From the NCBI GenBank assembly GCA_963575745.1, contig CAUYUJ010000001.1, positions 2,046,001 through 2,110,000 on the forward strand: a stretch of 64,000 nucleotides of DNA, in the 5' to 3' direction. The translations under genes were made by a program, and so were the position numbers. A model generated the notes under the pieces. That model was given only the letters and a program-made list of their open reading frames with translations, was not told where the DNA came from and did not search any database. Every line of letters starts with the position of its first letter. Within the stretch, counting starts at the first letter, position 1. This stretch comes from Prorocentrum cordatum (Eukaryota). This document shows, piece by piece, positions 33-53,231 of this stretch.

Positions 33-1958
33 ATGCACATGCACTGGATTAAGATAACTATCTTCGGCATTCTATGGGTAATAATGGGATGTGCTGTGGG
101 ATACATGCGGCAGGGGATGGACGACACGCGTACTACCGGCCCTTCGTGGGACCCTGCCGGTACTACGCCTTTTCGCGAATACGTTCGCGAAGTACATGCA
201 TGGATAAACGTAACGAGCGGCAATATGACGCCACCTCAACAAGCTGCAGCACTACAACGAGGCCTTCAAGGTCTTGCTCGTCGTATCGCCATGCAGGTCC
301 CCTCCCAGATCATCAACTATGGTGTAACTGTCAACGGACAGCCAACGGATGCAGTTACTTATATACTGTACCTATTGAGCACCAAATTTGAAAATCTGGA
401 AGATGAGCGCCAGCTCAACTCTGGCACTGCCCTTATCGACTTTCGCGTCGAAAGGGGCGAGCGAATCGACTCAGTGTTAGCTCGATTCGAGATGGCCCGT
501 GACGAGGCTAACTCTGTTGGCTTTGTCATCCCCAACTTTCAGATCCTAACGCTGATCCTTTTCAGAGCGTTAGGCGTTGGCGCGTCACGAGCCCAACACC
601 TGCTGGAGCCCTTTAATCATCAGATGCCCAGAACACAAGCAGACTATGACAGGCTGCTGACCAGGATGAGGAACTACGGACATGTTGCCGAGCGCTCTCC
701 TGGCAACATTGCGGGTATCTTCACAGGGCACCACTCACATGCAGGTGTCTACGCCACGACTGCGGGGTCACCCGCTGGTCCTGGCGAGCCAAGTCCCTGG
801 GCTGACCCAGCCGATATGCCCAACGAGGCCACTGCCTTCTTAGGGCAGACCGGCCAGGCATCGGCAGAGGCAGCTGAGGCGAACGCCTGGTCGAACTACT
901 CGCCAGGCGCCGCCTACACTGCAAGCCCGCCCTCGGGCACAACCCTCTGGGGCCAAGCGGAGTCATCCGCTCAAGGGTCTCAGCCACCCTCACCGTTTGA
1001 ATCTGGCACTGACACAGATACCTCATCTGACGATGAGCACAATGGCATAGTCTCTGCTGGTAATGACTATCCAGCGGATGACACTCACCTTTCTGAACAA
1101 CAAAGAGCGGAAGCCGCTTTTATGGCTTATCGCAAATCAAAACGCCGTTGGAGGCGCTTTATGAAGAAACCAGTCAGAAAAGTGAGACGTGCAGTACGCC
1201 GACATTTCAAACGATATGGAAAGGGTCGTGGCAAAGGGGGTCGCAGACGCCGCATGCACGGTAGGGGTATTACTGCTTTCCTCACGTCCTTAACTGATAT
1301 AGTTTTTGAAGAAGTTCTTATCGGAGGCAAAGGTCGGGGTCGCAGGCGGACCTCTGATAAGGGAAAAGGGCGCAGGGGCAACCCTAGGGACGCTTCTGGC
1401 AATACTATGAAGTGTCATACATGCGGTAGCACAGAGCATTTGCGCGATCAATGCCCAAAAGGGAAAGGAAAGGGATCCGCACATTTGGCTCAAAACTCTT
1501 TTATGGATGACATAGACTACATTGACTACGAGTTTTACGTCAATCCAGAAGCGGCTCCCGCCGCGGGCTCCTCCACGTATTACGTGATGGCCCGCTACGC
1601 TGAAGTGACCGTAGCCCTGGAAGAGTACGCGGTGACCCTCTTCGACGAGTTCCACGGCTGGGACGAAGTCGACGAGGTCGCGTTCAATGCCTGGTTCGGT
1701 CTTCCAGCGGGGCCACCCGCCGACGACGAGATCTCCGATGCTGAGACCGTCCCGGCGACCGAGGAGGAGCTCGCCGCCGCGCTGGCACCGCAGGTGTTTG
1801 GCATGCCGTTGCTGCCAGATCTTCCGCGAGCTGGCTCGGAAGCGGGAGACGCTGATGACGAAATGCGGGGCCATCCCGCTTATTCTGACTCTGAAGAGCC
1901 GAAGAGGACCATAAGGACATGCTCCAAGAGCAGGTCGCAGAAGCAATCCAGCTCCTGA
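33..1958 (+). CDS. gag: Gag-like protein with basic region and CCHC zinc knuckle; probably continuous with the next ORF
   Basis: Gag-type N-terminal motif PSWDP..PFREYVREVHAW, an R/K/G-rich tract, and the knuckle CHTCGSTEHLRDQC (CX2CX4HX4C) at 1413-1454. The frame is open back to the window start, so the true start may lie upstream. Confidence 0.85.
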   Translation: MHMHWIKITIFGILWVIMGCAVGYMRQGMDDTRTTGPSWDPAGTTPFREYVREVHAWINVTSGNMTPPQQAAALQRGLQGLARRIAMQVPSQIINYGVTVNGQPTDAVTYILYLLSTKFENLEDERQLNSGTALIDFRVERGERIDSVLARFEMARDEANSVGFVIPNFQILTLILFRALGVGASRAQHLLEPFNHQMPRTQADYDRLLTRMRNYGHVAERSPGNIAGIFTGHHSHAGVYATTAGSPAGPGEPSPWADPADMPNEATAFLGQTGQASAEAAEANAWSNYSPGAAYTASPPSGTTLWGQAESSAQGSQPPSPFESGTDTDTSSDDEHNGIVSAGNDYPADDTHLSEQQRAEAAFMAYRKSKRRWRRFMKKPVRKVRRAVRRHFKRYGKGRGKGGRRRRMHGRGITAFLTSLTDIVFEEVLIGGKGRGRRRTSDKGKGRRGNPRDASGNTMKCHTCGSTEHLRDQCPKGKGKGSAHLAQNSFMDDIDYIDYEFYVNPEAAPAAGSSTYYVMARYAEVTVALEEYAVTLFDEFHGWDEVDEVAFNAWFGLPAGPPADDEISDAETVPATEEELAAALAPQVFGMPLLPDLPRAGSEAGDADDEMRGHPAYSDSEEPKRTIRTCSKSRSQKQSSS

Positions 1959-4900
1959 GTGCGCCAGCACATCAGCAGATAACCATGAACGACCTGCTGT
2001 CGCACCCAGGGGCCGCAAGGCTGCGTCCATACCTGGATTCGGACATGTCGGCACCTCAGATGCTGACAGCACTCCAGGCTCTAGCGGGGTCACCCGCCGA
2101 AGTGACGCCAGCCGCAGCAGCGGGGCCACCCGCTTGGTCTATGGATGTATTCATGCAGGGCTGCGACCAGATGGACCTCAACGACCTCACGATGGAGCAG
2201 CTAAACGACATCGGGTACTTCCGAAGCCCGTATCAGCACGTATTCATGGTCCAGGACAGCTCAGAGGACTCGGAGGACATGCGCCATGCCAAGAGGGACA
2301 GACGACCATCGCCTCCCCGAGACTCAGAGCATGAAGATGAAAGGCCCATGGAACGTGGCAGTGCGTCAGCGGGGCCAGCCCGCAGGAGGAGCCGTTCAGC
2401 TCCACGACGCCCTACACATGATGCATCGGGCTATCCGTACAGTACGGAGCACTCCGTAGGTGCATCCGCTCAGTACGTGCCGGAGTGGTACATCAATTGG
2501 TACCCCGGCTACTCGATGGACGTGATCCGCCACTGGTATTCTAAGGAGTACTGCACCAAAAGGGACGAATCTGGCATGATAATACGCACCAAGGGTGGCA
2601 AGACTAAAACGCCAGAGGCTTGGGACAAAAGGGCTAAGAAACAGGAGATCATCAACGATCGCAAGACATACAGGAAACAAGTATGTCAATGCGAGCCCTT
2701 CAAAAGTCACATGCGCAGCAATCCAATGGACCGCCCCTCCAGGAGCCCTCATCACGGTGAGACCCCGTGGAATTGGTCTCATGGAGGTGACGCTGGCAAC
2801 GTCCATGATCCTAACAAGGAGGTCCCTGGAGGAGGAAAGCGCATAACTGAAGCCGATGGCGTCCCTATGACCGAGGAGGTTGCCAACGCTGTCAGGGAAA
2901 ATTGGGAACAGCTTCCTAATGACCATCGCCTCAAGGAATGGAACCGCCGATTCCATAAAGAGGCGGGGTCACCCGCAGAATCCAGCGGAGAAGCGGGGTC
3001 ACCCGCAGACGCGGCGCCAGTCGCTGGGTCCGCGGACGAAGATTGGATAGCTGTTGCATCTGCTGCCGGATCCGCCGCCGGTACTGACCAAACCGAACTG
3101 ACTGAAGAATGGGCGGCGGAAGACGGCTCAGAGAATCCATTCCCTGATGGGTGCGCCTGCTGGCACTACAGCTCCTCGGCACAGAAGTGGTTTTGCACAA
3201 GGGTTATTCACCGCCACGAAAATGGCAAGTACAAGCTGGCCATAAAAGGCACTGCCGACATCGACCAGATGAGGCAGATCGTTCATGATCATGGCCAGCC
3301 AGAAGGCCCTCCTAAGGACCCTCCTGGTCCACAACCAGGCAAGGGCAGCAGACCACCTCCAAGACCTGAAGCCGACTCCTCGTCTTCACCGACTCCTGCG
3401 AAGAGGCACCCGTCCAAGAGCCCCGAAGGCACACGGGGGCGTGCGAAGGCCAGAGGGATCGCCAAGAAGGACGACCCTGAGCAGGGAGAGCCGACCGGCC
3501 CGTCCGTGACGGAGAGGAGGAAGGCTTTTGCTGGACCATCAACCCCGGTGCCACCGGCTGCCCAAGGCGATGTCAAGGACGAAGTTCGCGACCAGCCTAA
3601 GGCAGCCTTCCGAGGTGACTGGACTCCAACGCTGCATCAGCCGCGCCTTGCACCACGACCAGGTTCAGCACGAATGAAAGCACAGCCGAAGCCTGAAGCT
3701 GGGACGAGGTCGGCGCGGGCAGAAGCAGCCGCCAAAGCTAAGGAGGACAAGGGCTCTGCGGGGCCACCCGCTAAAGCGGCGCCAGCTGCAGCAGCGGGGG
3801 CACCCGCAGAAGGCACTCTCTCAAGAGAAGAACGCTTCAGAGCCCTCAAAGAGTTTGGCGACCGACAGAAACTAGCCGACGATGCAGTGGCTGACCAAGG
3901 TCACCCGCACCCTGGCGCGGAGTCATCCGCTGGAGCTGCCTCGTCAGCCGCAGGTTCTGCAGGGCCACCCGTTAAAGCGGCGCCAGCTGCATTAGCGGGG
4001 CCACTCGTTAAAGCGGCGCCAGCTGCATTAGCGGGGCCACCCGCACGCTGGCAGCCAGCGATGTCTGTTCTCAGGAACATCCCTCTGGGAGCCATTGAAT
4101 ATTGGCAAGGCATTGAAGGCAAAGGCCCGAAGCGCACCATAAACCCACGAGTCACTCGAGACGATGCAGATCGATGCGAGGTCATTAATTGTCCTGATCG
4201 CCGTAACTTCGAGTGCCGCAACGATTGGGAACGTGAACAACAAGCCGTGGGAAATATGTTGCGAGACAGGCCGCCATTGCGCGTCGCGCAGCACAGGGCA
4301 GAGCTCATGAAGGTCCTGGAGAAGTTTAATACAGATCCTACTCTGCCGCGCGACTGGCAAATGACCAAGGTGTCAATATGGTTCTCTACAGCCCTACCCC
4401 ATAGTCCGTATTGGAAAGATGGATTCAGCCGACATTTCGAAAAGATCAACACTTTCGATCCATACGATGGCTGGGTTGTTATTGACGATTTGTTGACAAA
4501 CTGGACTGAAAACGATCAGTGGAAAGGCTACCGTGACATGCATGATGCGCTGATCAAGGGCAACCCTCACTGTTCATACGTGTACTGGGTGTTGCTAAAC
4601 TGCTGCGAGATGATCGACGGTCATGGTATGCAGAAGGGCAGGCTCCAGATGAAGTGCGTCGAGGACAGCATGAAGCTACCTCCCAGATTCCGACCAACGG
4701 TACGCAGGCCACAATACTTCATCAGAGCCACGAACGGCCATAGCAGCCCAGGCATCCACTGCCCCGAGTCGCTCTATAAGCCGATCACAACATGGATGAA
4801 GGAACCAGACGACCCAGTATACTTCATCCACGGGACACAGTGGGAACATGTCAAGGGCATCCTTGATAATGGCCTTTCGTGCCTCGCACAGGACAACCCT

Positions 4901-7900
4901 AAGGGGAAGGGGGGGCGCCAGTTCGTACACGGCTGCCCCTACCTCCCGGGTGACCCGAGGATTCAATCGGGCATCCGTCCTGACTCAGAGGTGCTTATCT
5001 TCTGCAGCATCAGCAAGATGTTGTCCAGCGGCTTTTCCTTATGGAGGTCAGCGAATGACATCGTCATGACACGGGGCCACGACGGCCGCATACCGCCCGA
5101 TCATATCCTCCAGATTGTGAGCATTGCAAAATATCGGGTCGGTGAAGCCTGGAGCAATCCGCTGGCGTATGACAAATCGCGGAAGCGGGGCCAACCCGCA
5201 GACAGGATTCGCACCGATGATTACCTGCCACTTAAACTATGTGACAGAACTCTGGGTGTAATGGAAGATCACGCCATGTACCTAAAGGGCTGGTCTAAGA
5301 CGGACGGTCGCCCATTCAACTTGATCATGACCGAGCAAGATGTTGCTCCACGACCGTACGACACACAGACAGTCCTCATGATAAATGCCCAGGAAGACGA
5401 GGTCATGCCTGAGGCGGGGCCACCCGCAGGTGCGGGGACACCCGCGGTAGACACCTCGGATGGTTCATGGCAACAAGTGGTCACACCAGTAGCAACGGTA
5501 GCATCTCCTTGGAGGCCGGATCAGCAGGCATGGGTCCAGGCCCTCAACAGCTACCTGACACCAGCCGACGTTTCTGGACTGACCGATCAGCTATATCGTG
5601 CTGACCCGTGGGCAGTGCATACAGGTATCCAAGACGCACAGCAGAGGAACCTGCGCACTCCTGCGGGGCCACCAGGCGTCCTAGGACCACAGCCACAACG
5701 CCCTCCGCAGCAGGCTGGAGGTGCGAGGTTTGTCCCTATGGGCGGCTCAGATGGTGGCTCGCCGTTCCGGACTCCGCCGTCTGAAACGAGCGAGAACAGC
5801 TTGTGGCAAAGACTCCAGGCGATTCGCGGGAATCCGGCACTCGCAGCAGCACTCCAAGCAACCACTCCCTTTGGCACTCCGAGGGGTAGTGAAGGAGGAG
5901 TGGCTGCGGGGTCACCCGCCGAGCGAACGCCTGCGGAGCCACCCGCTCAAGCGGGGCCACCCGCTGACGGACAGCAAGGTTCAGACTACGAACGTCGGGC
6001 AGCCAACTTAAGAGCACAGGCTACTTTTCTGCAGCAACAAGCTGATAGAGTGCCCAGCCTGTTGCGGAACCGCAACATAGATGTTACGAATCATGGCGAC
6101 TTTCGACCTCTTTGGAGTTGGACTTCTGAAGATGCTCCAAATGCTGATCCCACGAATCCATATCGACAGGTGTTTATTCCAGGAATAGCATCACACCCGA
6201 TATATGGATGGGACAATCACGGTCCAGCAGAGGCGCAGGCCATGGACGCGCCGATGTACCCGGAGTACTACGCGCAGATGAATAACACTCCTATGATTGC
6301 GGGGCCACCTGCGAACGAATACACTCGGAACCTAGCTAATGAGATGTTTCGTTTGCAGTTTACACGAGCGGTCGATGCGCAGTCTATGCCGCACTACGCC
6401 TACATGCCCACGCCGACGGACCCCGAGACCATAGTTCAGCCAGCTGGTCTCGCGGTGCCAGCCGCTATGGGCAGCATGCCAGACTACATTCGCGACGTGC
6501 ACAACACGCAGCAAGCGATACTGGCATCCAGGCAGCAGGCTCGGGACAACACCAGGCTGCGCCAACAACGCGCGATCCAGAGAAGGATTGAGCGCGAGGC
6601 CCAAGCGGGGACACCCGCAGAAGCGGGGCCACCCGCTGAACGGTCAGACAGACGGCCACCACCGACGCCATATCGGGAGGGCGAAACCACTTTCGAGCGC
6701 CAAGCTCGGACTCGCCCTGACGTGCCTGCTCCAGTCATTTCAGACTACAACTTCACTCAGTGCCCAATCTGCATGGACAACTACGAGATGGGCACTACAG
6801 TGTGGAGACTGGCGTGCGGGCACTTCTTTCACGACATATGCTGGGACCGTGTTGCACAACAGCACGTCCGCAATCAGCGGCCAGGTGCGCCGAATGAGGC
6901 CCCCTGTGCCGTATGTCGGGGACCGGGCATAGTGATAGCACACTTCCCATATGCTGGACAGCGCGACGCTGAGTCGGACCAAGCGCGCCAGCAGGAAAGA
7001 TATGTTGCAGATGCCCGAGAAATGCGTCGGTTACGAGAAGCAGTGGAGGCACTGGAGGCTCGAGTCGCTCTATCAGCGGAGCCATCCGCACGTGCCCCAG
7101 CTGCGCAGGCATACCCCTGGCCAGCGCCAGAACAAGGCATTCAGATGCCGATCCTGTCCACGCTCCGAGCGCAGGAGCCCCCAGCTGCGGGGCCACCCGC
7201 TGAAGCGGCTCCCGCCGCCCAAGCGGGGCCACCCGCAAACGGACCTCCAAACCCAGGTTTCCTGAGGACCATGGAGGCCAACATCAGGCGGAGTGGCAGG
7301 AGCGGAGGCGGGATCCGAAGGCCAACTGGATCAACCAGGACCTCTCGAGTGGCAAGCCCGGTCAGCGCCAGAAGCCGGGCAAGCGCTGAGAGCGCAGAGG
7401 CAGCCCAGTTTCATACCACGTTCATGATTGACACAGAGGGGCTGACCTACGCGCGTGACGATACAGACACGCTGCCACCAGGAGGCGAATGGATGTCCAC
7501 GCTCTCTGCAAACTATTGGGTCCTCCAGCAGGAACCAATTACTGTGGAGGAGCGCCGCCAGTACGATCAGATGTGGTGCACCGAGCTGACCATGAGCCAA
7601 TGGGTTCTTGAACAGCGCCTGTTGAGGGGTACACTCGGATCACAGATCACGTACCACACCAACGACCACACTGGCGTACAGGTCGCTCTTGCAGCGCGCA
7701 ATGGGACATTCTTTCCTGATGAAGATGGTGTGCCCTGTATCTCGTTCATGCTGGACATTGGTTCTAATGTGAACATCATTGGATCCAACACGGCGCGGAC
7801 CTTCCAGGAGATAATGGCCAGGTACAACTACCGACCTGCCATCTGCACCCTGAGCAAGACCCTCTACATTAATGGTGTTGGGGAGGGCGCTGCGATATGT

Positions 7901-8815
7901 CGGAAGATGGGCAACTTCAAGATCGGGGTACAGTATGCCAACGAGGCGAGCCCCCGTATCGAGGAGTATGCCTCCAACATCGCAGAAGGTTCGGGTGCCA
8001 ATATCCCGGCCATCTGGGGCCTAGGAGCCATGGAGGCACGTGACACGATCATCGTGCTGAAGCCTGGCTACCAGAAGGTCATCTTCCCCAGCGGTGACTA
8101 CACCCTGAAGCTGGGAAGAGGCACCAAGGTCCTGAAGGCGAAAAAGACTCCCTCGGGCCATCTCGCGATTCCCTGCGGGCTGTATGAAGGGGCCAAGAGC
8201 CACACGGTCACGAACACCTTCACGATCCGCAGCAGTCGAGATGGCTACACCGAGACGGAGAATGAAGAAGACCCCGTCAGTGCGGGGCCACCCGCTGAAA
8301 CAACAGCGGGGCCACCCGCGACGGGACAGTCTGCGACCTTCACGACCGATACGTACATCGTCGAGCCGTACATCGACAAGCAGCTCCTGGAGGACACGAC
8401 CCGTTTGATCGTGAACAGGACGCTGAACAACTGGTGGGAGTGCCGACAGGGCCCCGAAGGGACTGGGCCACACATGAAGGCTGCCCTGAAGTCCAAGATT
8501 TTCTGGGCAGTCCAGGAGGCGGTGAGCAAATGGGCGCCTGAGGATCCAGCGGGGCCACCCGTGTCGCCGCCACCACCACCAAGCCACATGGGCGGAGGTT
8601 CGTCGGACTCTGCGGGGCCAACCCGCGTGGAGATCGTGGGTCACGCTACGGATCGGACGGAATACTTTGACATATCTGAAAACAATCCGCCGATTCTGTC
8701 TGCGAGCGTGGCCACACCAGCTGCGGGGTCACCCGCCGAGCGAACGCCTGCGGAGTCATCCGCTAACAGCATGCCTCCGAGCCAAGCGGCAACTTGGTCT
8801 CACGACCGCCGCTGA
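1895..8815 (+). CDS. Polyprotein block 2: low-complexity linkers, Tpt1/KptA-like domain, RING-H2 finger, aspartic protease
   Basis: 2298-aa ORF from ATG 1919; the frame is open from 1895. It contains the three motif sets listed separately and ends at TGA 8813-8815. Confidence 0.88.
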   Translation, partial: RAEEDHKDMLQEQVAEAIQLLSAPAHQQITMNDLLSHPGAARLRPYLDSDMSAPQMLTALQALAGSPAEVTPAAAAGPPAWSMDVFMQGCDQMDLNDLTMEQLNDIGYFRSPYQHVFMVQDSSEDSEDMRHAKRDRRPSPPRDSEHEDERPMERGSASAGPARRRSRSAPRRPTHDASGYPYSTEHSVGASAQYVPEWYINWYPGYSMDVIRHWYSKEYCTKRDESGMIIRTKGGKTKTPEAWDKRAKKQEIINDRKTYRKQVCQCEPFKSHMRSNPMDRPSRSPHHGETPWNWSHGGDAGNVHDPNKEVPGGGKRITEADGVPMTEEVANAVRENWEQLPNDHRLKEWNRRFHKEAGSPAESSGEAGSPADAAPVAGSADEDWIAVASAAGSAAGTDQTELTEEWAAEDGSENPFPDGCACWHYSSSAQKWFCTRVIHRHENGKYKLAIKGTADIDQMRQIVHDHGQPEGPPKDPPGPQPGKGSRPPPRPEADSSSSPTPAKRHPSKSPEGTRGRAKARGIAKKDDPEQGEPTGPSVTERRKAFAGPSTPVPPAAQGDVKDEVRDQPKAAFRGDWTPTLHQPRLAPRPGSARMKAQPKPEAGTRSARAEAAAKAKEDKGSAGPPAKAAPAAAAGAPAEGTLSREERFRALKEFGDRQKLADDAVADQGHPHPGAESSAGAASSAAGSAGPPVKAAPAALAGPLVKAAPAALAGPPARWQPAMSVLRNIPLGAIEYWQGIEGKGPKRTINPRVTRDDADRCEVINCPDRRNFECRNDWEREQQAVGNMLRDRPPLRVAQHRAELMKVLEKFNTDPTLPRDWQMTKVSIWFSTALPHSPYWKDGFSRHFEKINTFDPYDGWVVIDDLLTNWTENDQWKGYRDMHDALIKGNPHCSYVYWVLLNCCEMIDGHGMQKGRLQMKCVEDSMKLPPRFRPTVRRPQYFIRATNGHSSPGIHCPESLYKPITTWMKEPDDPVYFIHGTQWEHVKGILDNGLSCLAQDNPKGKGGRQFVHGCPYLPGDPRIQSGIRPDSEVLIFCSISKMLSSGFSLWRSANDIVMTRGHDGRIPPDHILQIVSIAKYRVGEAWSNPLAYDKSRKRGQPADRIRTDDYLPLKLCDRTLGVMEDHAMYLKGWSKTDGRPFNLIMTEQDVAPRPYDTQTVLMINAQEDEVMPEAGPPAGAGTPAVDTSDGSWQQVVTPVATVASPWRPDQQAWVQALNSYLTPADVSGLTDQLYRADPWAVHTGIQDAQQRNLRTPAGPPGVLGPQPQRPPQQAGGARFVPMGGSDGGSPFRTPPSETSENSLWQRLQAIRGNPALAAALQATTPFGTPRGSEGGVAAGSPAERTPAEPPAQAGPPADGQQGSDYERRAANLRAQATFLQQQADRVPSLLRNRNIDVTNHGDFRPLWSWTSEDAPNADPTNPYRQVFIPGIASHPIYGWDNHGPAEAQAMDAPMYPEYYAQMNNTPMIAGPPANEYTRNLANEMFRLQFTRAVDAQSMPHYAYMPTPTDPETIVQPAGLAVPAAMGSMPDYIRDVHNTQQAILASRQQARDNTRLRQQRAIQRRIEREAQAGTPAEAGPPAERSDRRPPPTPYREGETTFERQARTRPDVPAPVISDYNFTQCPICMDNYEMGTTVWRLACGHFFHDICWDRVAQQHVRNQRPGAPNEAPCAVCRGPGIVIAHFPYAGQRDAESDQARQQERYVADAREMRRLREAVEALEARVALSAEPSARAPAAQAYPWPAPEQGIQMPILSTLRAQEPPAAGPPAEAAPAAQAGPPANGPPNPGFLRTMEANIRRSGRSGGGIRRPTGSTRTSRVASPVSARSRASAESAEAAQFHTTFMIDTEGLTYARDDTDTLPPGGEWMSTLSANYWVLQQEPITVEERRQYDQMWCTELTMSQWVLEQRLLRGTLGSQITYHTNDHTGVQVALAARNGTFFPDEDGVPCISFMLDIGSNVNIIGSNTARTFQEIMARYNYRPAICTLSKTLYINGVGEGAAICRKMGNFKIGVQYANEASPRIEEYASNIAEGSGANIPAIWGLGAMEARDTIIVLKPGYQKVIFPSGDYTLKLGRGTKVLKAKKTPSGHLAIPCGLYEGAKSHTVTNTFTIRSSRDGYTETENEEDPVSAGPPAETTAGPPATGQSATFTTDTYIVEPYIDKQLLEDTTRLIVNRTLNNWWECRQGPEGTGPHMKAALKSKIFWAVQEAVSKWAPEDPAGPPVSPPPPPSHMGGGSSDSAGPTRVEIVGHATDRTEYFDISENNPPILSASVATPAAGSPAERTPAESSANSMPPSQAATWSHDRR
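4361..5125 (+). other. Tpt1/KptA-like RNA 2'-phosphotransferase domain (RNA lobe + NAD+/ART lobe)
   Basis: Ordered motifs match the family pattern: SIWFSTALPH (cf. S..LS..LRH), DGWVVIDDLL, KGRLQM (cf. KxRF), IRATNGHS (cf. IRAxQGHS), FIHGT, I...GL, RQFVH (cf. RxHVH), SGIR, VLIF, SANDIVMT (cf. SxNGVxLT), GRIPPDHI. Confidence 0.88.
6761..6916 (+). other. RING-H2 zinc finger (putative E3 ubiquitin ligase domain)
   Basis: CPIC-x14-C-G-H-FF-H-DI-C-W-x20-CAVCR gives the complete C3H2C3 ligand set and the conserved Trp. Confidence 0.9.
7736..8180 (+). other. Retropepsin-type aspartic protease
   Basis: ISFMLDIGSNVNIIG (variant of the D-T/S-G motif, Asp codon 7754-7756), flap-like INGVGEG, IPAIWGLGAM, and SGHLAIP. 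Confidence 0.75.
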
Positions 8816-8851
8816 CGGGGGCAGGCGGGCGCGCCGGCGGCGCTCGCTTGC
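8813..8851 (+). promoter_or_regulatory. Putative stop-codon readthrough signal (UGA-CGG plus 3' stem-loop)
   Basis: TGA 8813-8815 is the only stop between two long ORFs in the same frame. It is followed by CGG GG and a hairpin GCAGGCGGGCGC (8821-8832) / GCGCTCGCTTGC (8840-8851), 12 bp with 2 G-U pairs. Confidence 0.7.
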
Positions 8852-11800
8852 GATGAGAAGCCGAATGCCGGCCTCCTCGCTACATACGTTGGCCGCGCTG
8901 AGGCCCGAGAGGAAAAATATCATTCAAAATGTCTTGTCATCGAGGATATTCGCACAGCTTGCGCTGAACTCCGAACCCGTGGCTATATATGTGATCGGAT
9001 TACCCATAATGAGGTAATGACTTCAACTGGAACACAGTATTTGGGAAATTTGTTGGCAGGAGACTACAATATGTTGTGGGTGGCCACACCCTCTGATTGG
9101 TACGTTCGTACTCCAGGAAAGAGGGCGGGACCACACTATCAACGTATACAAAATCTCCTGATCAAAGCGCGTGCTCTGAGAATGCAGATTGTTATCCTGG
9201 GGACACCCGGGTATTTCTGGAAACAGGGTCCGATCAAAGATGTTACCGAAGATTTGAAGCTAAGCATTATACGAATGAGACTCTGTCATTTCGGTATCAA
9301 GTTTGACCGCTCCAGTAAATATCCCAGTGATTCTTATATACAAGTTGCTACATCTTGTCCCCATATACCGATAAACTTATGGAGATGTACGTGTGGCTCA
9401 CACAAAGAGCACGATTTGGATTGGTATGGCCAAGACCAGCAACGTGCCGAGTTCCGGCATAAAACCTTGGCTATCATCACTGCACGCTTCCTTGATCAAC
9501 TCAATAAAGCCAACGTGATTAGGAATGAGCGGAGTGCGGTACACCTCAGTGTGTGTACGCGCGTTGACAAAAAGGTAAGACACTACGTTCAATGTCCACA
9601 AAAGGGCCCTCAATGGGACCATGTTGTTCGTAGAGTCACGACCGACCTGGACACGAATAAGATCGTTCAAGATATCAAAATCCAGGATCAGCCGACTGGG
9701 TACAATTATGTAGCTCCATTACCTGATGGGGTTACAAACATCAGTACTCGGTTATACTGGGAGCCTCCGGCTCCAGTTCTTCACGGCGATGGTGAGTCGC
9801 GAAGGCCACGCCCAAAGCGTGTGACGATCGTCGATGACGATCGGTCTCCTCCCCCTTCGATTGAGCGTTGCCAAACGCGACCCACCAACTTTCCTGAAAT
9901 TCCGCCATTTCCTGACTTAACAGCGGATCCTTCCGCAGCGGATCCCTCCGCAGCGGATCTCTCCGCGGAAACTGCGCTGCCCACTGATGCCAGGATAAAA
10001 CAGAAAGAAAAGCAGAAAGCTGACAAAGAAGCCGGCATCAAACCGAAGAAAATCCCGAAGAAAGTGGAAGACGGTAACGACGACTGTGGAGAGGACCTCA
10101 AAGGGCTTGACTGCTCCACATATTTCAACGACGTTCCTCTTGATGACTCGGACTCGGACAGCGAATCAGAGGACATCTTCATGATGTTACCGGCGGGGCA
10201 ACCCGCTGACTCACATGCTGATGTCTTCTCGATGGTCCAGTCACTATGCTACGGCAGAAACAATCAAGTGGACATGCTTGAATTATGTGGGGGCAAGGGT
10301 GGTATATCCATATTAGCCTTCAAGAGAGGACTCTCGTCGGGCGGGAGCCTTGATAAGGTATCTATGGTTGACCTTGGGAACGCGGAAGTACAAAGGGCAG
10401 TCCTTCACTACCTCAAGACTTGCTTTGTCAAGATCACGATTCTGCAGCCAAGCTGCAGAACTACTGGACTTCCTTCCTACTTCAATGCACAGGTCAATCA
10501 TGATACGTGGCTTAAACACCACAAAGAGGACCTGCCTCATATCACGTTCTGTGGAACAGTCGCTCTATTACAAGACGACCTAAGACGTTTCTTTCTCAGG
10601 GAACAACCAATGGGCACGTGGGTGGATGAGATCCAGCCATGGAAGGAACTGGCACAACGCAAGGTCACTTGCCAAACGATTATTGATCAGTGCACGACTG
10701 GTCTCAAAGATTCGTTTGGACAATACATCCGCAAGCCAACACAGATGATGGCAAACAAAGAAGAGTTGTTGGCACCCTTCAGAGGCAAGCGTTGTCCAGG
10801 TAATCATGTGCACGCCAATGCTTGCAACAAAGAACTAGCAAGGGCGGCACAGTATACCTACAGAATGCAGTCACTGATCGTTGATGCGGTGCAAATCGCC
10901 AAAGATCTGTTTGCTTACGGTCGCGATCCATTCGCGAATCGCGAACGCAGTTATGCGTTCGTAACAAACAGTGCTGGCTACGACTTGGACGACCCAACAA
11001 TCCGGAGACACCCAAACGGAGAAATCTGGCGACCACCACCTGGCGGTCTTGGGTGTCCTGGCTGTGTAGACAACAACTACAAACAATCACCAAGACACAG
11101 CAGGGATCCGAAGATGTGTCGATGGTATGATGTTGAACCATACCATTGGGACTGTCCAAGCTGTAAGAAGGAATACCAGAAGAGCAATCCTCACCATACC
11201 AAGATATCTGGCCAATGTAGATTCGCTGAAAAATGGAAACTGCCAGATAACTTTGGTCAGCCGCGCCCAGCGGGGCAAGCCGCTCCTGCGGCGCCAGCCG
11301 CGGAAGCGGCTCCAGCCGCAGAAGCGGCGCCAGCCGCAAAAGCGGCGCCGGCCGCGAAAGCGCGCATACGCGCGCCTAGGCCGCCACGGCCCGGTGAGGG
11401 CGATCCAACCGCAGGCGCCAGCAGCCATGACATCACCAGGGCCGAGGGGGCTCATGGTAACACCTCTGGCGCTGGTAGCTCTGACGATCACCGCAGACTG
11501 CCACAAGTTGCAGCAAGGCGCGGACGCATGGAGGGAGGAGATCCTCCACCACCGCCGCAGCCTCAAGCAGAGCCGAGGCCAAGGCCAAGGCTCCCTGATT
11601 GGACTCGCTTCGACGTTCAGCTCAGCCTTCAAAACCTGCGCAGCTTTGACCCAGCTGTAGTGCAGCGAGAACTCCGCAAACTCCACTTGAGATGGTTTCA
11701 TGCCAAGGAGCCAAAAATGCGGATGATTCTAACTAAGGTTGGTCTGGGTGAAACCCGTTTGAGTCTGATCAAAGGCATTTGCGACTCGTGTAGAGAATGT

Positions 11801-12233
11801 CGAGCCTGGGACAAACCAGGCAACACGGTGATGCCTTCTGTGTCACTGCCAGGACGTTTCAACGAGGAAGTCGAATGTGATCTTTTCTTTTACAAACAGG
11901 AACATATTGTTTTTCACATCATCGACCGTTGTATTCGCTGGGCAGCTGGCACAGAGATTCCTGATAAGACTATGCATACTGTTCTCGATGCCTATCACAC
12001 AACTTGGATGCAACATGGCCCTGCTAAAATCTTATACTCCGATGGGGAAGGAGCACTGAATAACGATACAGCAAAGGCCATCCTTAAGGCTAAGGGAACA
12101 GAGCTTCGTATCCGAGCGCGTGGCCAACACGCCACGACTATCGAAGCTAGGAACGGCATCCTGCGACACCTCATACACGTGATGGGAGAAGAATTGAATA
12201 GATTAAATATTCCTCTGAATTTCACTCGTCTTT
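8816..12233 (+). CDS. pol: Pol block 1: two methyltransferase-like domains, tandem Zn modules, integrase; continues after a -1 break
   Basis: The frame of the supplied 9017-12610 ORF is open from 8816 (RGQAGAPAALACDEKPN...KCLVIEDIRTACAELRTRGYICDRITHNEVM). Integrase-like sequence switches to the -1 frame at ~12231-12233. Confidence 0.85.
8927..9430 (+). other. Degenerate C5-methyltransferase-like domain (copy 1)
   Basis: Motif order parallels the downstream domain: CLVIE, LWVATP, VILGTPGYFW, MRLCHFGIK, RCTCGSH. The glycine-rich SAM loop, the catalytic Cys and the motif VI Glu are not evident. Confidence 0.4.
10265..10890 (+). other. C5 cytosine DNA methyltransferase-like domain (copy 2)
   Basis: VDMLELCGGKGG (motif I-like), VDL, ILQPSC (motif IV-like, Cys retained), FLREQP (motif VI-like), IDQCTTGL..RKPT (motif VIII-like), CPGNHVH, AAQYT. 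Confidence 0.68.
11054..11218 (+). other. Two tandem CxxC-x10-H-x6-C putative zinc-binding modules
   Basis: CPGCVDNNYKQSPRHSRDPKMC and CPSCKKEYQKSNPHHTKISGQC have identical ligand spacing, and each is followed by Arg plus an aromatic residue. Confidence 0.65.
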
Positions 12234-12330
12234 ACATGAAGCCTTGTTTGCCAGCAACGCATTTACCTTCTACAATGAAGTTTCTCCGTATAATGCGCTG
12301 TATGGCAGACAACCAGCTATGCTTCCCGAT
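11681..12330 (+). other. Retroviral-type integrase (HHCC + DDE core)
   Basis: LHLRWFHA...CREC. Catalytic triad in ECDLF (Asp 11879), YSDGEG (Asp 12041) and IEARN (Glu 12143). It continues as SNAFTFYNEVSPYNALYGRQP in the -1 frame. Confidence 0.88.
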
Positions 12331-15300
12331 TTCCCTGTCTTGGATCATGATCAGTCCGCTGAATCATCAGATCACTCAAGGGAGGAGACAATCAGGAGGG
12401 TTAGTCTGGAGGCAATTACGCAGGCCACTGCGGTTGCCAAGACGAACAGGGCTCTCCGTACGAAGACTACTGCTACGGGTGAATTTCACTACAAAGAGGG
12501 AGATCTCGTGGACTATCATCGCCCGACCACCACGAAAGACGACTGGGGTGGATGGAGTGGTCCATACCCGGTCATCCGCAACGAACCTGACCGAGGCCAG
12601 GTCATCGTGAAGGTCGGTAGTCGCGAAGTGCGAGTACAGTATCCTGACACACGACATACGCTGTACATCGAAGCACTGATGGTCCGCGAGATAGGATCGG
12701 ACAATACGGCCCTTCGGACAGTATTGGCCTTTATTGCCGGTCTGCCAGCGGGGAAACCCGCCATGACTTTCGGATATCTACCAGCGAAACAGGGCCGGCT
12801 GCAGATGACTGCTGCGAGCCGACTTTCGCCTAAGGTGCACTTGGCTCTTCAGTACCTCATACGCAACTATTTTCGTATTGAAAACGTTGTTGCTGTACGA
12901 CTTGCCAAGAGCCTGACGAAGTTGCCTGCTGCCCCCTATGCAGACAGCTGTACACTAGTGCACTATGATAACGATGTGACCCCTGGCTTTCACTATTATG
13001 AAGCTGATGGCACTGCCTTGAACATCTACGACATCACAGGATCCACACACTCACGCATCATCCAGTGTCTTAAATCCAAGAAGCCGCCTGCTGGATTCGA
13101 CCGAGACCTCACTAAGTTTGAGGAACTCGCTGATGGTCCACCACCAAGCGAGTCACCTCCAGCAGCTGCTCCTGAGCAGCCTCCTGCGGAGAATGATGGT
13201 CGGCTCCCGACCATCATAGAGGAAACAGAAGAAGATCTGGATGCCTTTGTCTTAAAGTCGTGGTATGCTGAACTGATGGATGACAGAACACTCCTTGAAG
13301 CTGACACAGAAGAAGTCATGCATACAGTTCCGACATACATGACAGACACACAGTGTGTGTTAGTCTCTACGACCTGTGAAGATGTGCAAGGCCACTTGCC
13401 GGAGCGGGGTCACCCGCCAGGATACGACATGGACACTGCTTACTACGTTCCTTTGTGCTCCACGGATCCGGACAGCAAATATGATCTGGATTCCGATGAG
13501 CACGGGAAGTACATCGAGCTTTGCTTCACAGCAGACATGTCCAAAGTCGTCCTGTCCGAGCAGCAACACCGATTGTTGGATGACAGCAGCGTCACAACTA
13601 TGCGAGTATACGTTAGTGCTGCCTCCAAACGTGCCGCGGTCGTCAAGGAAGACGATCTACTCACGAAGGCCGACATTCAAGCGAATCCGGTCAAAGTTTC
13701 CAAAGCCCTTTACACAGAATTGAAGACTTGGCTTGACAACAAATGCTTCCAGATGACTGACTTGAGCAAAGCGTCGAACATCATGACTTCACGCTACGTA
13801 TACAAATGGAAGTTTGTCAAGAACGAAAAGGGCGAAATGGAAAGGACGATTAGGTTACGCTTGGTACTCCGTGGCTTCATGGACCTTGAAGCCTTTGATG
13901 TCGAAACCTTCTCTGGTACGGCAAGGAGGTCAAGCCAGAGACTGCTCGCAAGTTCTGCTGCATGCAACAAAGCTTGGATCATCGCTTCCCTGGACATCAA
14001 CATGGCTTTCTTGAAGGGACTGACCTATAGCGAGCTCGCCGCGGCAACGGGCGAGAAAGAGCGTGTGGTGTGCTTCACACTACCTCCTGGGTCAGCAGCT
14101 GTCCTTCGCACACTGCCAGGCTTTGAGTCATATGACGAATCAAAGCATTGTCTTCGGTGTCTGAAGCCGGGGACGGGCACGAAGGATGCTCCCAGGGCAT
14201 TCTCGTTGAAGCTCAGATCCATCACTAGGAGCTTTGGACTACAGCCTACTTCATACGACGAAGAGTTCGAGATGAGCTCAAACCTCTTGACAGCCAAACA
14301 CGTCGATGACATCAATATGACTGGGAAGGAAGATGCTATTGACAAGTATGTCAAGTGTGTTGAAGATACGTTTGGAAAGTGCAAACTGAACAAGCACACA
14401 TACACAAACTGTGCCGTTCGGTACAACAAGACCGATGATGGGAGCGTCACTCTTGATCAGGACGAATACATCAAACAGCTTCGTCCTATCACACATCCAG
14501 AACTCACAGGAGCTGATCCTGAGAGCAAAGCGACAAAGACGATTTCTGATATGTTCGTCAGTCTTCGTGGCGCTCTAGCCTATGCGTTGATCACGCAGGT
14601 ATGGCTGATGGTCTATGTTGTCTCACTACAACGTATCCAGGAACCGACAAACATCCAGGTACGACGACTAAACGCGGTTACCAGGAAACTGCAGGCAGGT
14701 CCGAAGAAGATCGTGTATCAAGCTATGACTCCAACAGGAGAAGTCGACCTGCATAGCGATTCTGGCTATCGTCGTCTCAACGGAGATGAAGACGACGAAG
14801 TCAAAGGCTATGGTATCCGCGGGGCTAACCTGCTGAGGCGTGGCCACACGCAAGCGGGGAAACCCGTCGTGCACCTGGTGGACGCATACTGCAAGTCTCA
14901 TCGACTGCAGGTGCGTTCGAGCTACTCTGCGGAAACACTGGCAGCAGCCCACAACTTGGAAGACTGCTACCGGACCATTGTAACGCTCCACGAGCTACAC
15001 TCGGGACCATTGACCCCCACACAGTTAAAGAACATATTGGAAATGGGTGGTCTATGTATCAAAGTCACTCTGACTATTGATGCCGAGTCTGTCTTCAAGT
15101 CTTTGTCTAGCAAAGATCTGAAGAAGCCCACAGAATGTACTCTGCTTGGGCACATTAGCTGGATCCGCCAGATGATGGAGCGCGGAATCGTTGAAAGCGT
15201 TCAATGGTGTGACACGCGGGATATGACTGCTGATGGTCATACCAAAGGTAGTATTGACCGCGCGTTGCTCCTACAAGTAATGGCCGGCCAGCAATCCTTC

Positions 15301-15426
15301 AAGCACGAGCTGAAGAGACATACTCCGTATAGGGCGGGCAGGTCGTCTCAGGACGGCCCTGCCTCCCGAGCTAGCGGGAAAACCCGCATGCAGGTGCGCT
15401 CTAGTAGCGAGGAAACTCGCCGGTAG
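12234..15426 (+). CDS. pol: Pol block 2: integrase C-terminus, copia-type reverse transcriptase and RNase H
   Basis: RT motifs SRYVYKWK, RLRLVLRGF, SLDINMAFLKG, GTKDAPRAF, KHVDDI (14296-14313) and LDQDEYI. RNase H motifs LHSDSGY, SSYSAETLAA, TIDAESV and DMTADGHTK. Confidence 0.93.
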
Positions 15427-19300: not shown

Positions 19301-20261
19301 TTTTTATTATTAAAATTCTAGCCGCAAGAGTCACGGGCCACGAGGAAATGACCAGCGAGAGCACCGTTTTGAAGCAGAGCCGCGGTCCATCCGTGTAGCT
19401 CCTGCGCCACTTGCACCACCAGCACAGAATTCTGGAGGAAGTTGCAGTCGAGAGCCGCATTCATAAAACAACACAACAAAAACACACAAAAGGATCCGCA
19501 CTCCTTTCGCTGAAATGTTGCACGCATTGAAAATATTGGTTGTGTTCCTGATGAAGTTCCAAGCGCGAGCCAAAGTGTGCAAAGGAGCCGCCTCAACGCC
19601 GGGCATGGGTGGGGGGAACTTCCCAGGCAAACAGGCTAATGTGAGCGGAGACATGACGAGAGTCACATTATCACCCTCCCTTCATCCGTGTGGCTGCCGG
19701 AAGGTTTTCAGATGAGTGCGACCATCGCTAAGGGGAGACACACATGTTGGAAGTCATTCGCCCTCTTCTGCGTCTGGCTGTTCAAAGCCGTTCAGACGAA
19801 CGTGCGCGGAGAATTGCCCGCTCTTCATCCGCGTAGCTGCTGGTTTCGTTCAGACGAGTGTGCGCCGCGCCACGGCGAGATCCACATTTGAAGATTATTC
19901 GCGCCCCCTCAGCCGTGCAGCAGTTAGGGATGATAATTCTCGGGGGATCCCAGCTTCAGGACCATAAGTGGCGAGGGCGTGAAAAGCGAAACGGCCTTCC
20001 ACCGCGCCTGGTGGTGCGACGAGGAGGAACCACTTAGAAGGATGGGGATGGATGATCTTCCTGCGAGCAGTTCACAGAGAAAGCTGCCAGGATGGAGTTG
20101 CGTCAGGGAAGCCGGATGATCCACAAGCGCAGTTCGCATGCTCATTCGTCTACGCTGCTCCAGGATGCTGGCTGCTAGCCGTAAGGCGGCTCGGAAGATA
20201 TACATCGAAAGTGCCAGGAGGGCATTCGATGAGATTCGAGTGCAGATTGGAGGGGATGGAG

Positions 20262-20428
20262 AATGAGGAAGAGGAGGAGGAGAAGAATGAGGAGGAGGAG
20301 GAGGAGAAGGAGGAGGAGGAGGAGGAGGGGGAGGGGAAGGAGGAGGAGGATGATGAGGAGGAGGAGGAGCAGGAAGAGGAGGAGGAGGAGGAGGAGGAGG
20401 AGGAGGAGGAGGAGGAGGGGGAGGGGGT
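20262..20428 (+). repeat. (GGA)n microsatellite, representative of many tracts
   Basis: Similar tracts at ~23208-23293, 23930-24135, 28715-28912, 35780-36350, 38532-38802, 39524-40137, 44200-44250, 44625-44945, 57470-57757 and 62742-62830. Confidence 0.95.
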
Positions 20429-20954
20429 TGGCAGGACGGGGGCGGCGGGACGCGGGAGGCGCAGAGGGCGCAGGAGGAGGACGACGACCACGCGGAGGAA
20501 CGGACAAGCATCGACCGAGCGCAGGAGGAACACCATCGGGCATCGAGGGCGAGGAGTAGCGGGAGCGGGAGAGACTCGGGGCCCGGCGGCCACGGCGAGG
20601 GGGCAGTGGCCCGCGCGGCCCGCGGGCTCGGCGCCCCCCCCCCGCTCGCCTCGCTCTTGGCGCGCCCTGCGGCCCGGCTGCGCCCTGCGGCCCCGCTGCG
20701 AGCGGCGCGCGCCCGTCGCGGCGCAGCGGCCGCGGCCACGGCTTCTGCTCGCGGGGGTTGAGGAGAAGGTTCGGCTACGCGTAAGAGGGGGCCTTCGCCG
20801 GGAGGACCGCTGGTGCGGGCACACCGACAGGGGTCCCACCAGCACTGGCCGGCGCGCTTCGACTGCTCAGCTTTGGCCTCCCCTGCGGCCCCCCACAGCC
20901 ACGCAGCCAAGGTCACTCTTGCCTGGGGTCACCTCTCGCGTGCAGCCAACGAAG

Positions 20955-21322
20955 GGTACCCATACCGCTACCTTTCAGGGTCTATTTCGATCCGATCGCT
21001 TCGATTCGATGACGATTCCAGCCGGCCCGATCCGATCCGATTCTGCTAGTCCGGCGATCCGATGCAGCCCGACGCTTGCATGGCGCGTTTGTGCATTTTG
21101 GCGCAGCCGATCTGATCCGAATCCGATTCCTCGCCGGTGCAGCCCGATCCGATACACATTTCGATTCAATCCGGTTTACCGATTCGATGCGGACTGTTCC
21201 TGCCCCTGCGTCGTTTTCGCCTTTTTGGGCCTCGTGGCCGTAGTCGATACCGCTGGATTCGCCTTCAAATTCTGGTCAGAACGCACCCTGCGGGAGGTCT
21301 GGGGGGTAGCAGTATGGGTACC
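20955..21322. mobile_element. MITE-like element (family A) with GGTACCCATACC/TGCTACC terminal inverted repeats and internal CGATC/CGATT repeats
   Basis: Left GGTACCCATACCGCTACC and right GGTAGCAGTATGGGTACC are complementary at 17 of 18 positions. The right ~120 bp resembles 26580-26700. Confidence 0.65.
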
Positions 21323-21394
21323 TTTCTGTGTCGCTGAGATCCGCCCCTATCGCTTCTTCCACCAGCCGAGGGTCTTGCAGAGCGGGGCATTGAC

Positions 21395-21895
21395 ATTGCA
21401 CTTGTGTCGTACCGTTTTTTGCGCTGCGGTCGTAGTACGGCGCGCTGCTGCGCCCTGGTGGGTGTGGTATGCACCGTGCTTGCGTTGTTCCTACATTTGC
21501 CGCAGCTGTCTGTACGTGTTGTGTTTGTTGTGTTGCGCTGTCTTGCCTTTCTTTGCGCTGGTGTTACACTTGCTGCGTGCATTGTATTGCATTTGGATTC
21601 TCAAGACTTGCGCGTGTCGTTGCGTACCATTTCCTTATACTTGCGCGGCCGTTGCATTGCAATTCCTTCCCGGTGCTTTCGCATTGTATTACGATTGCGT
21701 CAACATCTTACCGCGTCATGCCGCATTTCGTGTATCGAAACAAGTTACATGATCATGGGTTGCATTACGTTTCGCTTGCATCACTCACCATTGCATTGCA
21801 TTGCGTTGCTTTGTCACTGCTGTCCAGTGTATTTTGCGCTGCGCTGCACTGCTTTTCATGGCATTGCTTGTGACTTGGTTTCGTTACGCCATAGT
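21395..21895. repeat. Degenerate TTGCA/TTGCG pentamer low-complexity tract
   Basis: Recurrent CATTG, CGTTG and TGTTG units. Confidence 0.6.
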
Positions 21896-33796: not shown

Positions 33797-34380
33797 CGTC
33801 GGCGGTCACGGCGAGCGCCGAAACTACCGCAGACAGCAGCTATACCGGAACAACGATGGCTACAGGTTGCCAGCCGCACCGTTTGCTTCAGCTGCCTGCT
33901 CCAATTTGCCAAAATGTCTGGACTTCTACAGCACGCTGTTTACCTTCAGCCACCTCCACCTCCTCCTCCTCCTCCTCCTCCTCCTCCTCGCTCCTCCTCC
34001 TCCTCCTCCTCCTCCTCCTCCTCCTCTTCCTACTCCTTCCGCTTTCTCCTCTTCCTCCTCCTCCTTACTCACTCACTCACTCACTCACTCACTCACTCAC
34101 ACGCAGTCGCCGACACAAGCCAACAAGCTGTGGGGAGGGGAACACACCAGGCACAGGTGGGATGACACGGGTGCGCAGTGCCCGTCGGCGGTCACGGCGA
34201 TGGCCGAGACCACCGCAGACAGCAGTTATACCGCAACCAATGCATACAGGCCACCAGACGCACATTTTGCATCGGTTGCCGCTACAGGTGCCAACCTGTC
34301 CTGGACTCTACAGCGAGATGTCTACCTTCAGCCACTTCTCTCACTCGCACACAGTCGCCGACAGAAGCCAACTAGCGGTG
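33797..34380. repeat. Two-copy direct repeat interrupted by (TCC)n and (TCAC)n
   Basis: CGGCGGTCACGGCGA..GCCGA.AC.ACCGCAGACAGCAG.TATACCG at ~33800 and ~34186, each followed by CTGGACT..TACAGC and CAGTCGCCGACA.AAGCCAAC. Confidence 0.75.
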
Positions 34381-39395: not shown

Positions 39396-40136
39396 AAAAA
39401 CACAAGCGAAAACCCAACTCCGGGGAATCCTGTGTGTAAAAAAACAGTACGCGGGGGGGTGCCGAACATCTTCCGGACGCCATCAGGGGAAGTGGGAGAG
39501 TAGTATTCATATTGTGTAATTGTGGAGGAGGGGAGGAGGAGGGAGGAGGGAGGAGGAGGAGGAGGAGGAGGGGGAGGAGGGAGGAGGAGGAGGAGGGGAG
39601 GAGGAGGAGGAGGGGGAGGAGGAGGAGGCGGAGGAGCCACGAGTCATCAACGATGTTGGAATACACCTCCTCCAAGCTCCCTCCAAGCTCCAGGAGGAGG
39701 AGGAGGAGGAGGAGGAGGAGGAGGAGAGGAGGAGGGGGAAGGAGGGGAGGAGGAGGAGGAGGAGGAGGAGGAGGAGGAGGAGGAGGAGGAGGAGGAGGAG
39801 GAAGGATCAGCACGAGGAGGAGGAGGAGGAGGAGCAAGAGGTGGAGGAGGAGGAGGAGGAGAGGAGCAGGAGGAGAAGGAGGAGGAGGCGGAAGAGGGGG
39901 AGGGGGAGTGGGAGGATCAGGAGGGGGAGTGGGGGGGGAAGTGTGAGGGAGAGGAATGAGAAGGGAGGAGGAGGAATAGGCGGATGAGGAATCGGAGGAG
40001 GAGGAGGAGGAGGAGGAGGAGGAGGAGGAGATGGAGGAGGTGGAGGAGGAGGAGGAGAAGGAGGAGGAGGAGGAGGATGGGGAGGAGGAGAGAGAGGAGG
40101 GGGAGGAGGGGGAGGAGAAGGAGGAGGAGGAGGAGG

Positions 40137-41115: not shown

Positions 41116-41167
41116 GAGTGGAGGAGGAGGAGGAGGAGGGGGAGGACGATGAGCAGGAGGAGGAGAA

Positions 41168-53157: not shown

Positions 53158-53231
<74 letters not shown>

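Follow-up and report, generated by a model that had tools for sequence, protein, structure and literature searches.

The question raised by this locus is whether a single in-frame TGA ends a protein or is meant to be read through. The window analyzed is a stretch of 64,000 nucleotides (nt) from Prorocentrum cordatum (assembly GCA_963575745.1, contig CAUYUJ010000001.1, positions 2,046,001 to 2,110,000 of the forward strand). It contains part of a very large copia-like long terminal repeat (LTR) retrotransposon, in which two long open reading frames (ORFs) are separated by one stop codon, the TGA at 8813-8815. A sequence-only reading of the window had proposed that this TGA is a programmed readthrough site, placed after a protease and ahead of DNA methyltransferase (DNMT)-like sequence, integrase, and reverse transcriptase. 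Comparison with related elements suggests that the TGA is probably a leaky stop, ancestral to a family of giant copia-like LTR retrotransposons and kept there by selection, with readthrough after the protease. Coordinates are those of the window, and the parts of the element described with coordinates in it are on the plus strand.

The two ORFs and the sequence between them form one reading frame interrupted only at the TGA. The ORF at 1919-8815 (2298 aa) and the ORF at 9017-12610 (1197 aa) have this frame in common. When the second ORF is read from stop to stop, its frame is open from 8816, and 8816-9016 is free of stops, as the sequence-only reading had stated. Over the 3563 codons from 1919 to 12607, TGA 8813 is the sole in-frame stop of frame 2. 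The sequence read directly gives CGG GGG after the TGA, and the CGG adjoining the stop belongs to a 5-nt spacer (CGGGG, 8816-8820) that leads to a hairpin. Between 8816 and 9016 there is no in-frame ATG, GTG, or TTG.

An in-frame stop is present at the homologous position in all of the more distant metagenome loci that were recovered. The first folded domain downstream of the TGA, here called domain A (8927-9586), has a degenerate fold resembling DNMT3L and DNMT2. A metagenome scan with an alignment of domain A yielded 8 loci (L001-L008). Two of them, L004 and L006, are near-identical, so that 7 distinct elements are represented. A search of viral contigs and genome contigs with the same alignment found no relative. 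All 8 metagenome loci have an in-frame stop between the protease-bearing ORF and domain A, and the two sides share a frame. In L004, 514 codons are followed by TAG and then by 1539 codons, and that TAG is the sole in-frame stop in 6168 nt; in L005, 543 codons are followed by TGA and then by 875 codons. The stop context is TGA-CGG-GGG in L001 and L007, TAG-GTT-GCA in L003, L004, L006, and L008, TAG-GAA in L002, and TGA-CAA in L005. The nine sequences (the window plus the 8 loci) therefore contain TGA-CGG three times, TGA-CAA once, and TAG-G five times, while TAA is never found. UGA-CGG (type II) and UAG-G (type III) are published readthrough contexts (Firth et al. 2011, PMC3159437). The codon preceding the stop differs between sequences (CGC, GAC, AAT, AAA, GAA, GAG, and TCG). 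Proteins in databases agree with a split at this point: of the best 150 representatives, BLAST shows the protease block in 27, domain A in 52, and the two together in none.

The linker between the stop and domain A is open in the upstream frame and lacks a conserved start codon. In eight distinct elements the linkers, measured up to the domain core, have unrelated sequences and range from about 31 to 84 codons. Together they contain no stop in 495 codons (P about 1e-8 from composition), whereas the two other frames have 8 and 21. An ATG occurs in the linkers of L001, L003, L005, and L008, at no conserved position, and there is none in the linkers of the window, L007, L004/L006, and L002. Because there are no stops in 495 codons and no ATG is conserved, the linker appears to be translated in the frame of the upstream ORF without a conserved start codon. 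In the window the linker covers 8816-8926. It would be translated only when the stop is bypassed and is predicted to be disordered (predicted local distance difference test score, pLDDT, below 50 at residues 1-33). The linkers of some relatives (L003:296-460 and the database proteins P0010, P0018, P0021, and P0048) have short repeated V-[RH]-G-N-[AM]-H-[SP] motifs, which could be protease cleavage sites.

The ATG at 9017-9019 lies inside domain A, and alignment and structure prediction both indicate that it is not a natural start codon. In a search of 1.84 billion representative proteins, matches to the downstream domain start some 30 residues ahead of the methionine of this ATG. The methionine falls in an alignment column that is methionine in most relatives, within a conserved 'THNELM' block. 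In an AlphaFold model of 8816-9586, a strand (residues 38-42) and a helix (residues 47-54) precede residue 68, which corresponds to ATG 9017. The sequence-only reading had claimed that the 67 codons before this ATG encode the first strand and helix of the fold and had argued from this against reinitiation; the model and the alignment bear out both points. A count of database proteins that start with M was also considered and is uninformative, as all 35 start with M, even those beginning inside the domain.

These observations bear on the alternative that survives best, namely that the conserved stop is a true terminator. The downstream ORF would then be expressed from an internal promoter or subgenomic RNA, by internal or non-AUG initiation, or by termination and reinitiation, and the hairpin would serve that route or have another RNA function. 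Four of the eight distinct elements do have an ATG in the linker. There is also a precedent in Tca2, a Ty1/copia element of Candida albicans, which has a gag-UGA-pol arrangement with a putative 3' pseudoknot (Forbes et al. 2007, PMC2194720). In that account the Tca2 junction alone gave no readthrough in Saccharomyces cerevisiae and contained a cryptic promoter, showing that the combination of an in-frame UGA and a 3' pseudoknot is not always sufficient for readthrough and that promoters may be concealed in such junctions. Against a terminator, the downstream ORF shares the upstream frame in all nine sequences, and a linker open from the stop onward would be needless under independent initiation. 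The window has none of the three start codons in 8816-9016, L007, L004/L006, and L002 have no linker ATG, and the stop contexts agree with known leaky contexts. True termination is thus improbable, and it is given some weight because the Tca2 junction alone failed to drive readthrough and held a promoter.

The structure downstream of the stop is supported by covariation among relatives. The window hairpin begins 5 nt past the TGA and has 12 base pairs, including 2 G-U pairs, between a 5' arm at 8821-8832 and a 3' arm at 8840-8851, with a 7-nt loop (GCCGGCG, 8833-8839). Its predicted energy is -24.8 kcal/mol. The sequence and its folding confirm the lone UGA-CGG-GG and the 12-base-pair stem described in the sequence-only reading. 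A 41-nt piece containing the hairpin has a z score of -2.0, and 9 of 200 shuffled sequences fold equally well, so that the energy of the window hairpin by itself is marginally beyond chance in GC-rich DNA. Because the fold energy alone is marginal relative to shuffles, the significance of the hairpin rests on the comparison with relatives.

That comparison uses an alignment of 8 sequences that is almost free of gaps from the stop to the 3' arm and has an identical 5-nt spacer throughout. Standard pairs occupy 81.3% of the cells of the 12-pair helix, compared with 43.8-52.1% after a shift of the partners by 1-3 columns. Changes on both sides are seen in five of the 12 pairs (pair 20-41, for example, is C-G, U-A, or A-U), and one G-U pair is invariant in all 8 sequences. 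The covariation score is 0.399 for the helix and 0.06-0.18 for slid partners, and none of 500 shuffles reached the former value. One sequence, L008, is off by 2 nt in this alignment, which lowers the score of the structure; 8 of 9 pairs form once it is placed in its own register. Overall the hairpin is retained through compensatory changes in 7 of the 8 metagenome loci. The sequence-only reading had suggested comparing the stop and stem across copies, and the stop proved to be conserved in every locus and the covarying hairpin in all but one. The 45-nt module is also more similar among relatives than the sequence before it. Members of the window's class are 0.69-0.82 identical over the module and members of the TAG class 0.51-0.78, whereas identity over the 45 nt preceding the stop is 0.22-0.36 apart from one pair at 0.62, and 0.29-0.31 within the window's class.

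The hairpin was found in this family only. A covariance model built from it gave significant E-values for its 8 training sequences only, and there is no second copy in the window. Three weak matches to the model (E 0.3-0.52) were taken as chance. No Rfam family matched in 8500-9300 at E values up to 1. Scans for the stop plus the 5' arm as a motif returned at least 120 bacterial and 3 viral loci; these are considered chance matches because none encodes the protease or domain A by tblastn.

The loop may also pair with sequence 3' of the stem, forming a tentative H-type pseudoknot. In the window, the CGGC of the loop could pair with GCCG at 8860-8863, which is inside an AAGCCGA block common to the window, L001, and L007; this helix has 4 base pairs and no covariation in that class. 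Helices between the loop and downstream sequence are possible in every sequence, the best having 4-9 base pairs and beginning 7-14 nt past the stem. When the downstream sequence was shuffled, the pairing score was matched by 75, 726, 307, 130, 69, 18, and 186 of 2000 shuffles, giving a Fisher P of 4e-4 over 7 sequences with L006 omitted. The best pairing in the window (7 base pairs) takes in position 8867, which is read as A by nearly all of the mapped contigs.

The contexts and the hairpin also bear on explanations that remove or redefine the stop. If splicing or editing removed it, the mature mRNA would contain one continuous ORF. DNA contigs contain no joint that skips the stop, although such data say nothing of RNA. 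Among the TAG sequences the GT comes after the stop, and a donor there would keep the stop, while the TGA class has no adjacent GT. Leaky contexts followed by a hairpin at a fixed distance of 5 nt would be unexpected of an intron, and this explanation is quite unlikely. Very unlikely is a bypass in which ribosomes hop over the stop and hairpin rather than decode the stop. A stable hairpin shortly after a stop is also a component of known bypass signals. In these sequences the codon before the stop varies and no matched take-off and landing pair is evident, and the frame and the open linker start directly at the stop. Reassignment, with TGA or TAG decoded by the host as sense or as selenocysteine, has still less to recommend it. 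A reassigned codon would recur, whereas there is one in-frame stop in the 3563 codons of the window and one TAG in 2054 codons of L004. Selenocysteine is excluded because TAG and TGA interchange at the site, with TAG in five of the nine sequences, and no tRNA gene was found in the window with ARAGORN.

The TGA is not private to this copy of the element. Contigs from four public runs belonging to four studies were mapped on 8400-9400 at a likeness of at least 80%. From 8801 to 8853, a region that includes the TGA and the stem, no alternative letter is present among the variant rows listed for the four runs; contigs drop rare variants. Flanking sites are variable, both upstream (8782, 8785, 8786, 8794, and 8800) and downstream (8854, 8867, and 8881). 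The summed depths over 8808-8841 are 7850, 97.5, 1102, and 36 in the four runs. One in-frame deletion variant (joint 8775->8812, skipping 8776-8811 with three other letters between; depth 577, run X3) ends at the same TGA and reproduces the C-terminus of a representative protein, P0003, at 83% identity. Loose ends at 8763 with an out-of-frame TGACGG were judged to be cross-mapping from another proline/alanine-rich repeat of the upstream ORF ('GPPADGQ') and not variants of the junction. The sequence-only reading had held that a sense codon in sister copies would make the stop a private nonsense mutation; near-identical copies in all four runs keep TGA. Private stops do exist elsewhere in the relatives (TGA 2131-2133 in L001, where the window encodes Cys; 4412, 4448, and 7322 in L002; 401-403 in L007), and none is shared. 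A private mutation in a decaying copy next to a chance hairpin would fit the damage elsewhere in this copy (integrase, 12236-12241), the presence of Gag in another frame, and the unremarkable stem energy in an 88-nt context, but it is scarcely credible given the stop and stem kept in sister copies, the stop in all 8 relatives, and the scattered, unshared positions of true private stops.

Programmed readthrough would work at this site as follows. Most ribosomes would terminate at the TGA and produce a polyprotein with Tpt1, RING, and protease domains. In a minority, a near-cognate tRNA would decode the stop and translation would continue in the same frame through the disordered linker into a DNMT3L-like domain, a second DNMT-like domain, integrase, and reverse transcriptase. 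Readthrough would be promoted by the nucleotides after the stop (CGG here, and G after TAG in relatives) and by the stable hairpin, possibly a pseudoknot, starting 5 nt past the stop. The abundant product would be Tpt1-RING-protease, with Gag made from the upstream ORF, and the rare product would add the two DNMT-like domains, integrase, and reverse transcriptase. That ribosomes read through the TGA, and at some rate, is what we infer from the comparison of sequences. The site combines a conserved in-frame stop, a leaky context in nine of nine sequences, a covarying 3' structure, and an open linker without a conserved start. The interpretation of the junction as a readthrough signal is supported by the retention of stop and hairpin and by the recognized contexts UGA-CGG and UAG-G (PMC3159437).

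Several observations weigh against readthrough. Besides the behavior of the Tca2 junction, the 88-nt context of the hairpin has a z score of +0.41, with 124 of 200 shuffles folding equally well. L005 retains the stop and not the hairpin, and the covariance model has no match there at E values up to 1. The covariation is based on 9 sequences only, from about 5 lineages. The 5-nt spacer is below the 7-12 nt of the viral cases described by Firth et al. 2011 (PMC3159437). Among the mapped contigs, 20 less-supported variant rows exist besides those listed, and a single contig of run X1 has an unplaced 8-letter loose end near 8781. None of the 24 listed runs that contain the stretch is on record as RNA. 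Finally, one distantly related representative protein (P0108) is a single model of 3301 aa in which protease, DNMT-like domain, integrase, and reverse transcriptase are continuous. Its identity is 29% over the best BLAST segment, and it may belong to a subfamily without the stop, or its gene model may skip the stop.

The junction has features of several known recoding systems. Type II signals, with UGA-CGG or UGA-CUA and a 3' stem, are found at the alphavirus nsP3/nsP4 junction, in the replicases of tobra-, peclu-, furo-, and pomoviruses, and in coltivirus VP9 (PMC3159437). This agrees with the statement in the sequence-only reading that UGA-CGG with a 3' stem is a readthrough signal in alphaviruses and plant RNA viruses. 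As described in the same source, conserved 3' stems of about 10-12 base pairs with compensatory changes lie 7-12 nt past such stops. The window junction resembles these signals in its UGA-CGG, in a compensated stem of about 11-12 base pairs a few nt downstream, and in having the polymerase part in the downstream product. It differs in its compact hairpin (a loop of 7 to 16 nt, in contrast to an extended viral stem enclosing 100-150 nt) and in its shorter spacer. It also belongs to an LTR retrotransposon, and its relatives put UAG-G on the same hairpin.

Retroelements provide further parallels. Tca2 is likewise of the copia type and combines an in-frame UGA with a predicted 3' structure, but in the published description its stop parts gag from pol, with the protease downstream. 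In the fission-yeast Ty3/gypsy elements Tj1, Tcry1, and Tosmo1-3, a conserved GAA-TGA-CT has been read as a programmed readthrough signal controlling the Gag:Gag-Pol ratio (PMC10085805). These elements share with the present family an in-frame TGA that is conserved across related elements and followed by C. They differ in being of gypsy type and in having the stop between Gag and protease-reverse transcriptase-integrase, and the description consulted gives the signal as a short linear motif and makes no mention of a 3' structure. Readthrough of the murine leukemia virus (MuLV) type resembles the present case in occurring in a retroelement, in joining an enzyme fusion across an in-frame stop, in the UAG-G context (five of nine sequences here), in its compact 3' structure, and in possible pairing of the loop with downstream sequence. 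Here the stop is after the protease and not between gag and protease, the pseudoknot is tentative, and there is no Rfam match. In alpharetroviruses the protease ends the gag frame and recoding follows it, via a -1 frameshift. Recoding after the protease, which places the protease in the abundant product, is common to alpharetroviruses and the elements described here, but the former use a frameshift and have no Tpt1, RING, or DNMT-like domains. We know of no other group than alpharetroviruses with a recoding site after the protease.

The family and its proposed readthrough site appear not to have been described, while programmed readthrough itself is well known in retroviruses and in a few retrotransposons. 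Literature searches found no account of Tpt1 or DNMT-like domains in a copia-type element, nor of this proposed site. LINE and DIRS elements with DNMTs are reported by De Mendoza et al. 2018, who state that the copia elements of Symbiodinium have no DNMT domains.

The upstream part of the element encodes Gag, Tpt1, RING, and protease-like domains in two ORFs. The sequence-only reading had placed all four in one ORF. The 2298-codon ORF (1919-8812) does contain a Tpt1/KptA-like domain (PF01885, E 9.4e-15), RING (Pfam RING families, E about 1e-7), and a protease-like block. The Gag-like ORF is separate, at 3-1958 in another frame, so that the label Gag-Tpt1-RING-protease joins two ORFs. It has an open 5' end and a CCHC zinc knuckle (Pfam zf-CCHC, E 0.0016), and the Gag end of P0108 (residues 136-520) matches window 141-1469 in tblastn with an E value of 5.9e-46. 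Between its protease and its DNMT-like part, at residues ~1150-1450, P0108 has in addition a block of about 600 residues that is missing from the window. The Gag-like ORF overlaps the open frame of the 2298-codon ORF at 1895-1958. This frame break may be a second lesion of this copy and not a programmed frameshift; no slippery site is evident by eye at 1895-1958. L002 has no break in the homologous stretch, and P0108 is a single protein. The Tpt1/KptA domain, an RNA 2'-phosphotransferase, is found in a retrotransposon polyprotein here, at window 4650-5100 or about residues 914-1053 of the ORF; the literature searches turned up no paper on such an arrangement. The protease-like block has D-x-G-S, G-V-G, and A-I-x-G columns that are invariant in 25 aligned sequences. 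It has no relevant Pfam match and none in a PDB profile search, and the putative protease is so labeled from its conserved motif order.

The downstream part encodes two domains that resemble DNMTs at the level of the predicted fold. Domain A has a mean pLDDT of 82.2 (model of 8816-9586), and its top Foldseek matches in the PDB are DNMT2, DNMT3L, and DNMT3A/B (E 7.9e-5 to 1e-3). Domain B (10229-11008) has a fold like that of C5 DNA methyltransferases, with a mean pLDDT of 84.0 and Foldseek matches to DNMT1, DNMT3, and Dnmt2 (best E 1.4e-3). Neither domain has a Pfam match at E values up to 5 or a DNMT match in a PDB profile search. The DNMT label given in the sequence-only reading therefore stands for the predicted fold and does not extend to sequence membership or to the catalytic motifs of a C5 DNA methyltransferase. 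The readthrough product would begin with two tandem DNMT-like folds, the first most similar to DNMT2 and to DNMT3L, which is a catalytically inactive partner, and the second similar to the catalytic domains of DNMT1 and DNMT3.

The integrase is interrupted in this copy. A frame change occurs in the integrase core at 12236-12241, where tblastn shifts from frame +2 to +1 at 12238-12241 and L004 is uninterrupted. This comparison indicates a lesion in this copy or its close relatives and not a recoding site. Because the integrase frame is broken where L004 is continuous, this copy is probably not autonomous. The following ORF (12244-15426) contains the C-terminal part of the integrase and a copia-type reverse transcriptase (PF07727 RVT_2, E 2.4e-11). 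RVT_2 with integrase homology upstream of the reverse transcriptase is the arrangement of Ty1/copia elements. The element extends past the 5' end of the window, and no LTR pair was found among the 20 of 31 direct-repeat families listed.

The remainder of the window contains many repeats. Trinucleotide arrays of the GAG/GGA type (and CTC type), often in long open frames and on both strands, are found at 20200-24200, 28500-29000, 33900-36300, 39700-40100, and 44600-45000. Tandem repeats are present at 40400-42000 (period about 83 nt), 50900-51500 (about 21 nt), and 53230-53580 (about 12 nt), and copies related to the 83-nt unit are found near 36650-37020 and 63140-63980.

Readthrough at the TGA would have implications for annotation and for the study of recoding. 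The two ORFs of these very large elements should be annotated as one recoded gene and not as a pseudogene. Two leaky contexts carried on one conserved hairpin with a very short spacer constitute a natural experiment on the roles of context and structure. Stimulator RNAs backed by covariation are few among cases of programmed readthrough, and Tca2, the sole copia-type case that has been studied, is unsettled.

A wider interpretation, which we favor slightly, is that this lineage of giant copia-like elements from aquatic metagenomes carries a portable recoding module. Its stop would toggle between UGA-CGG and UAG-G and be followed, at a fixed distance of 5 nt, by a hairpin or pseudoknot in which one G-U pair is invariant, and the module would be placed after the protease instead of after Gag. 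Gag, Tpt1, RING, and protease would be abundant, with a trickle of the DNMT3L-like and DNMT-like pair fused to integrase and reverse transcriptase. The pair could then act as a dosed mimic of a methyltransferase heterodimer, delivered with the integration machinery. The site also points to low-level production of the DNMT-like cargo, along with the integrase and reverse transcriptase.

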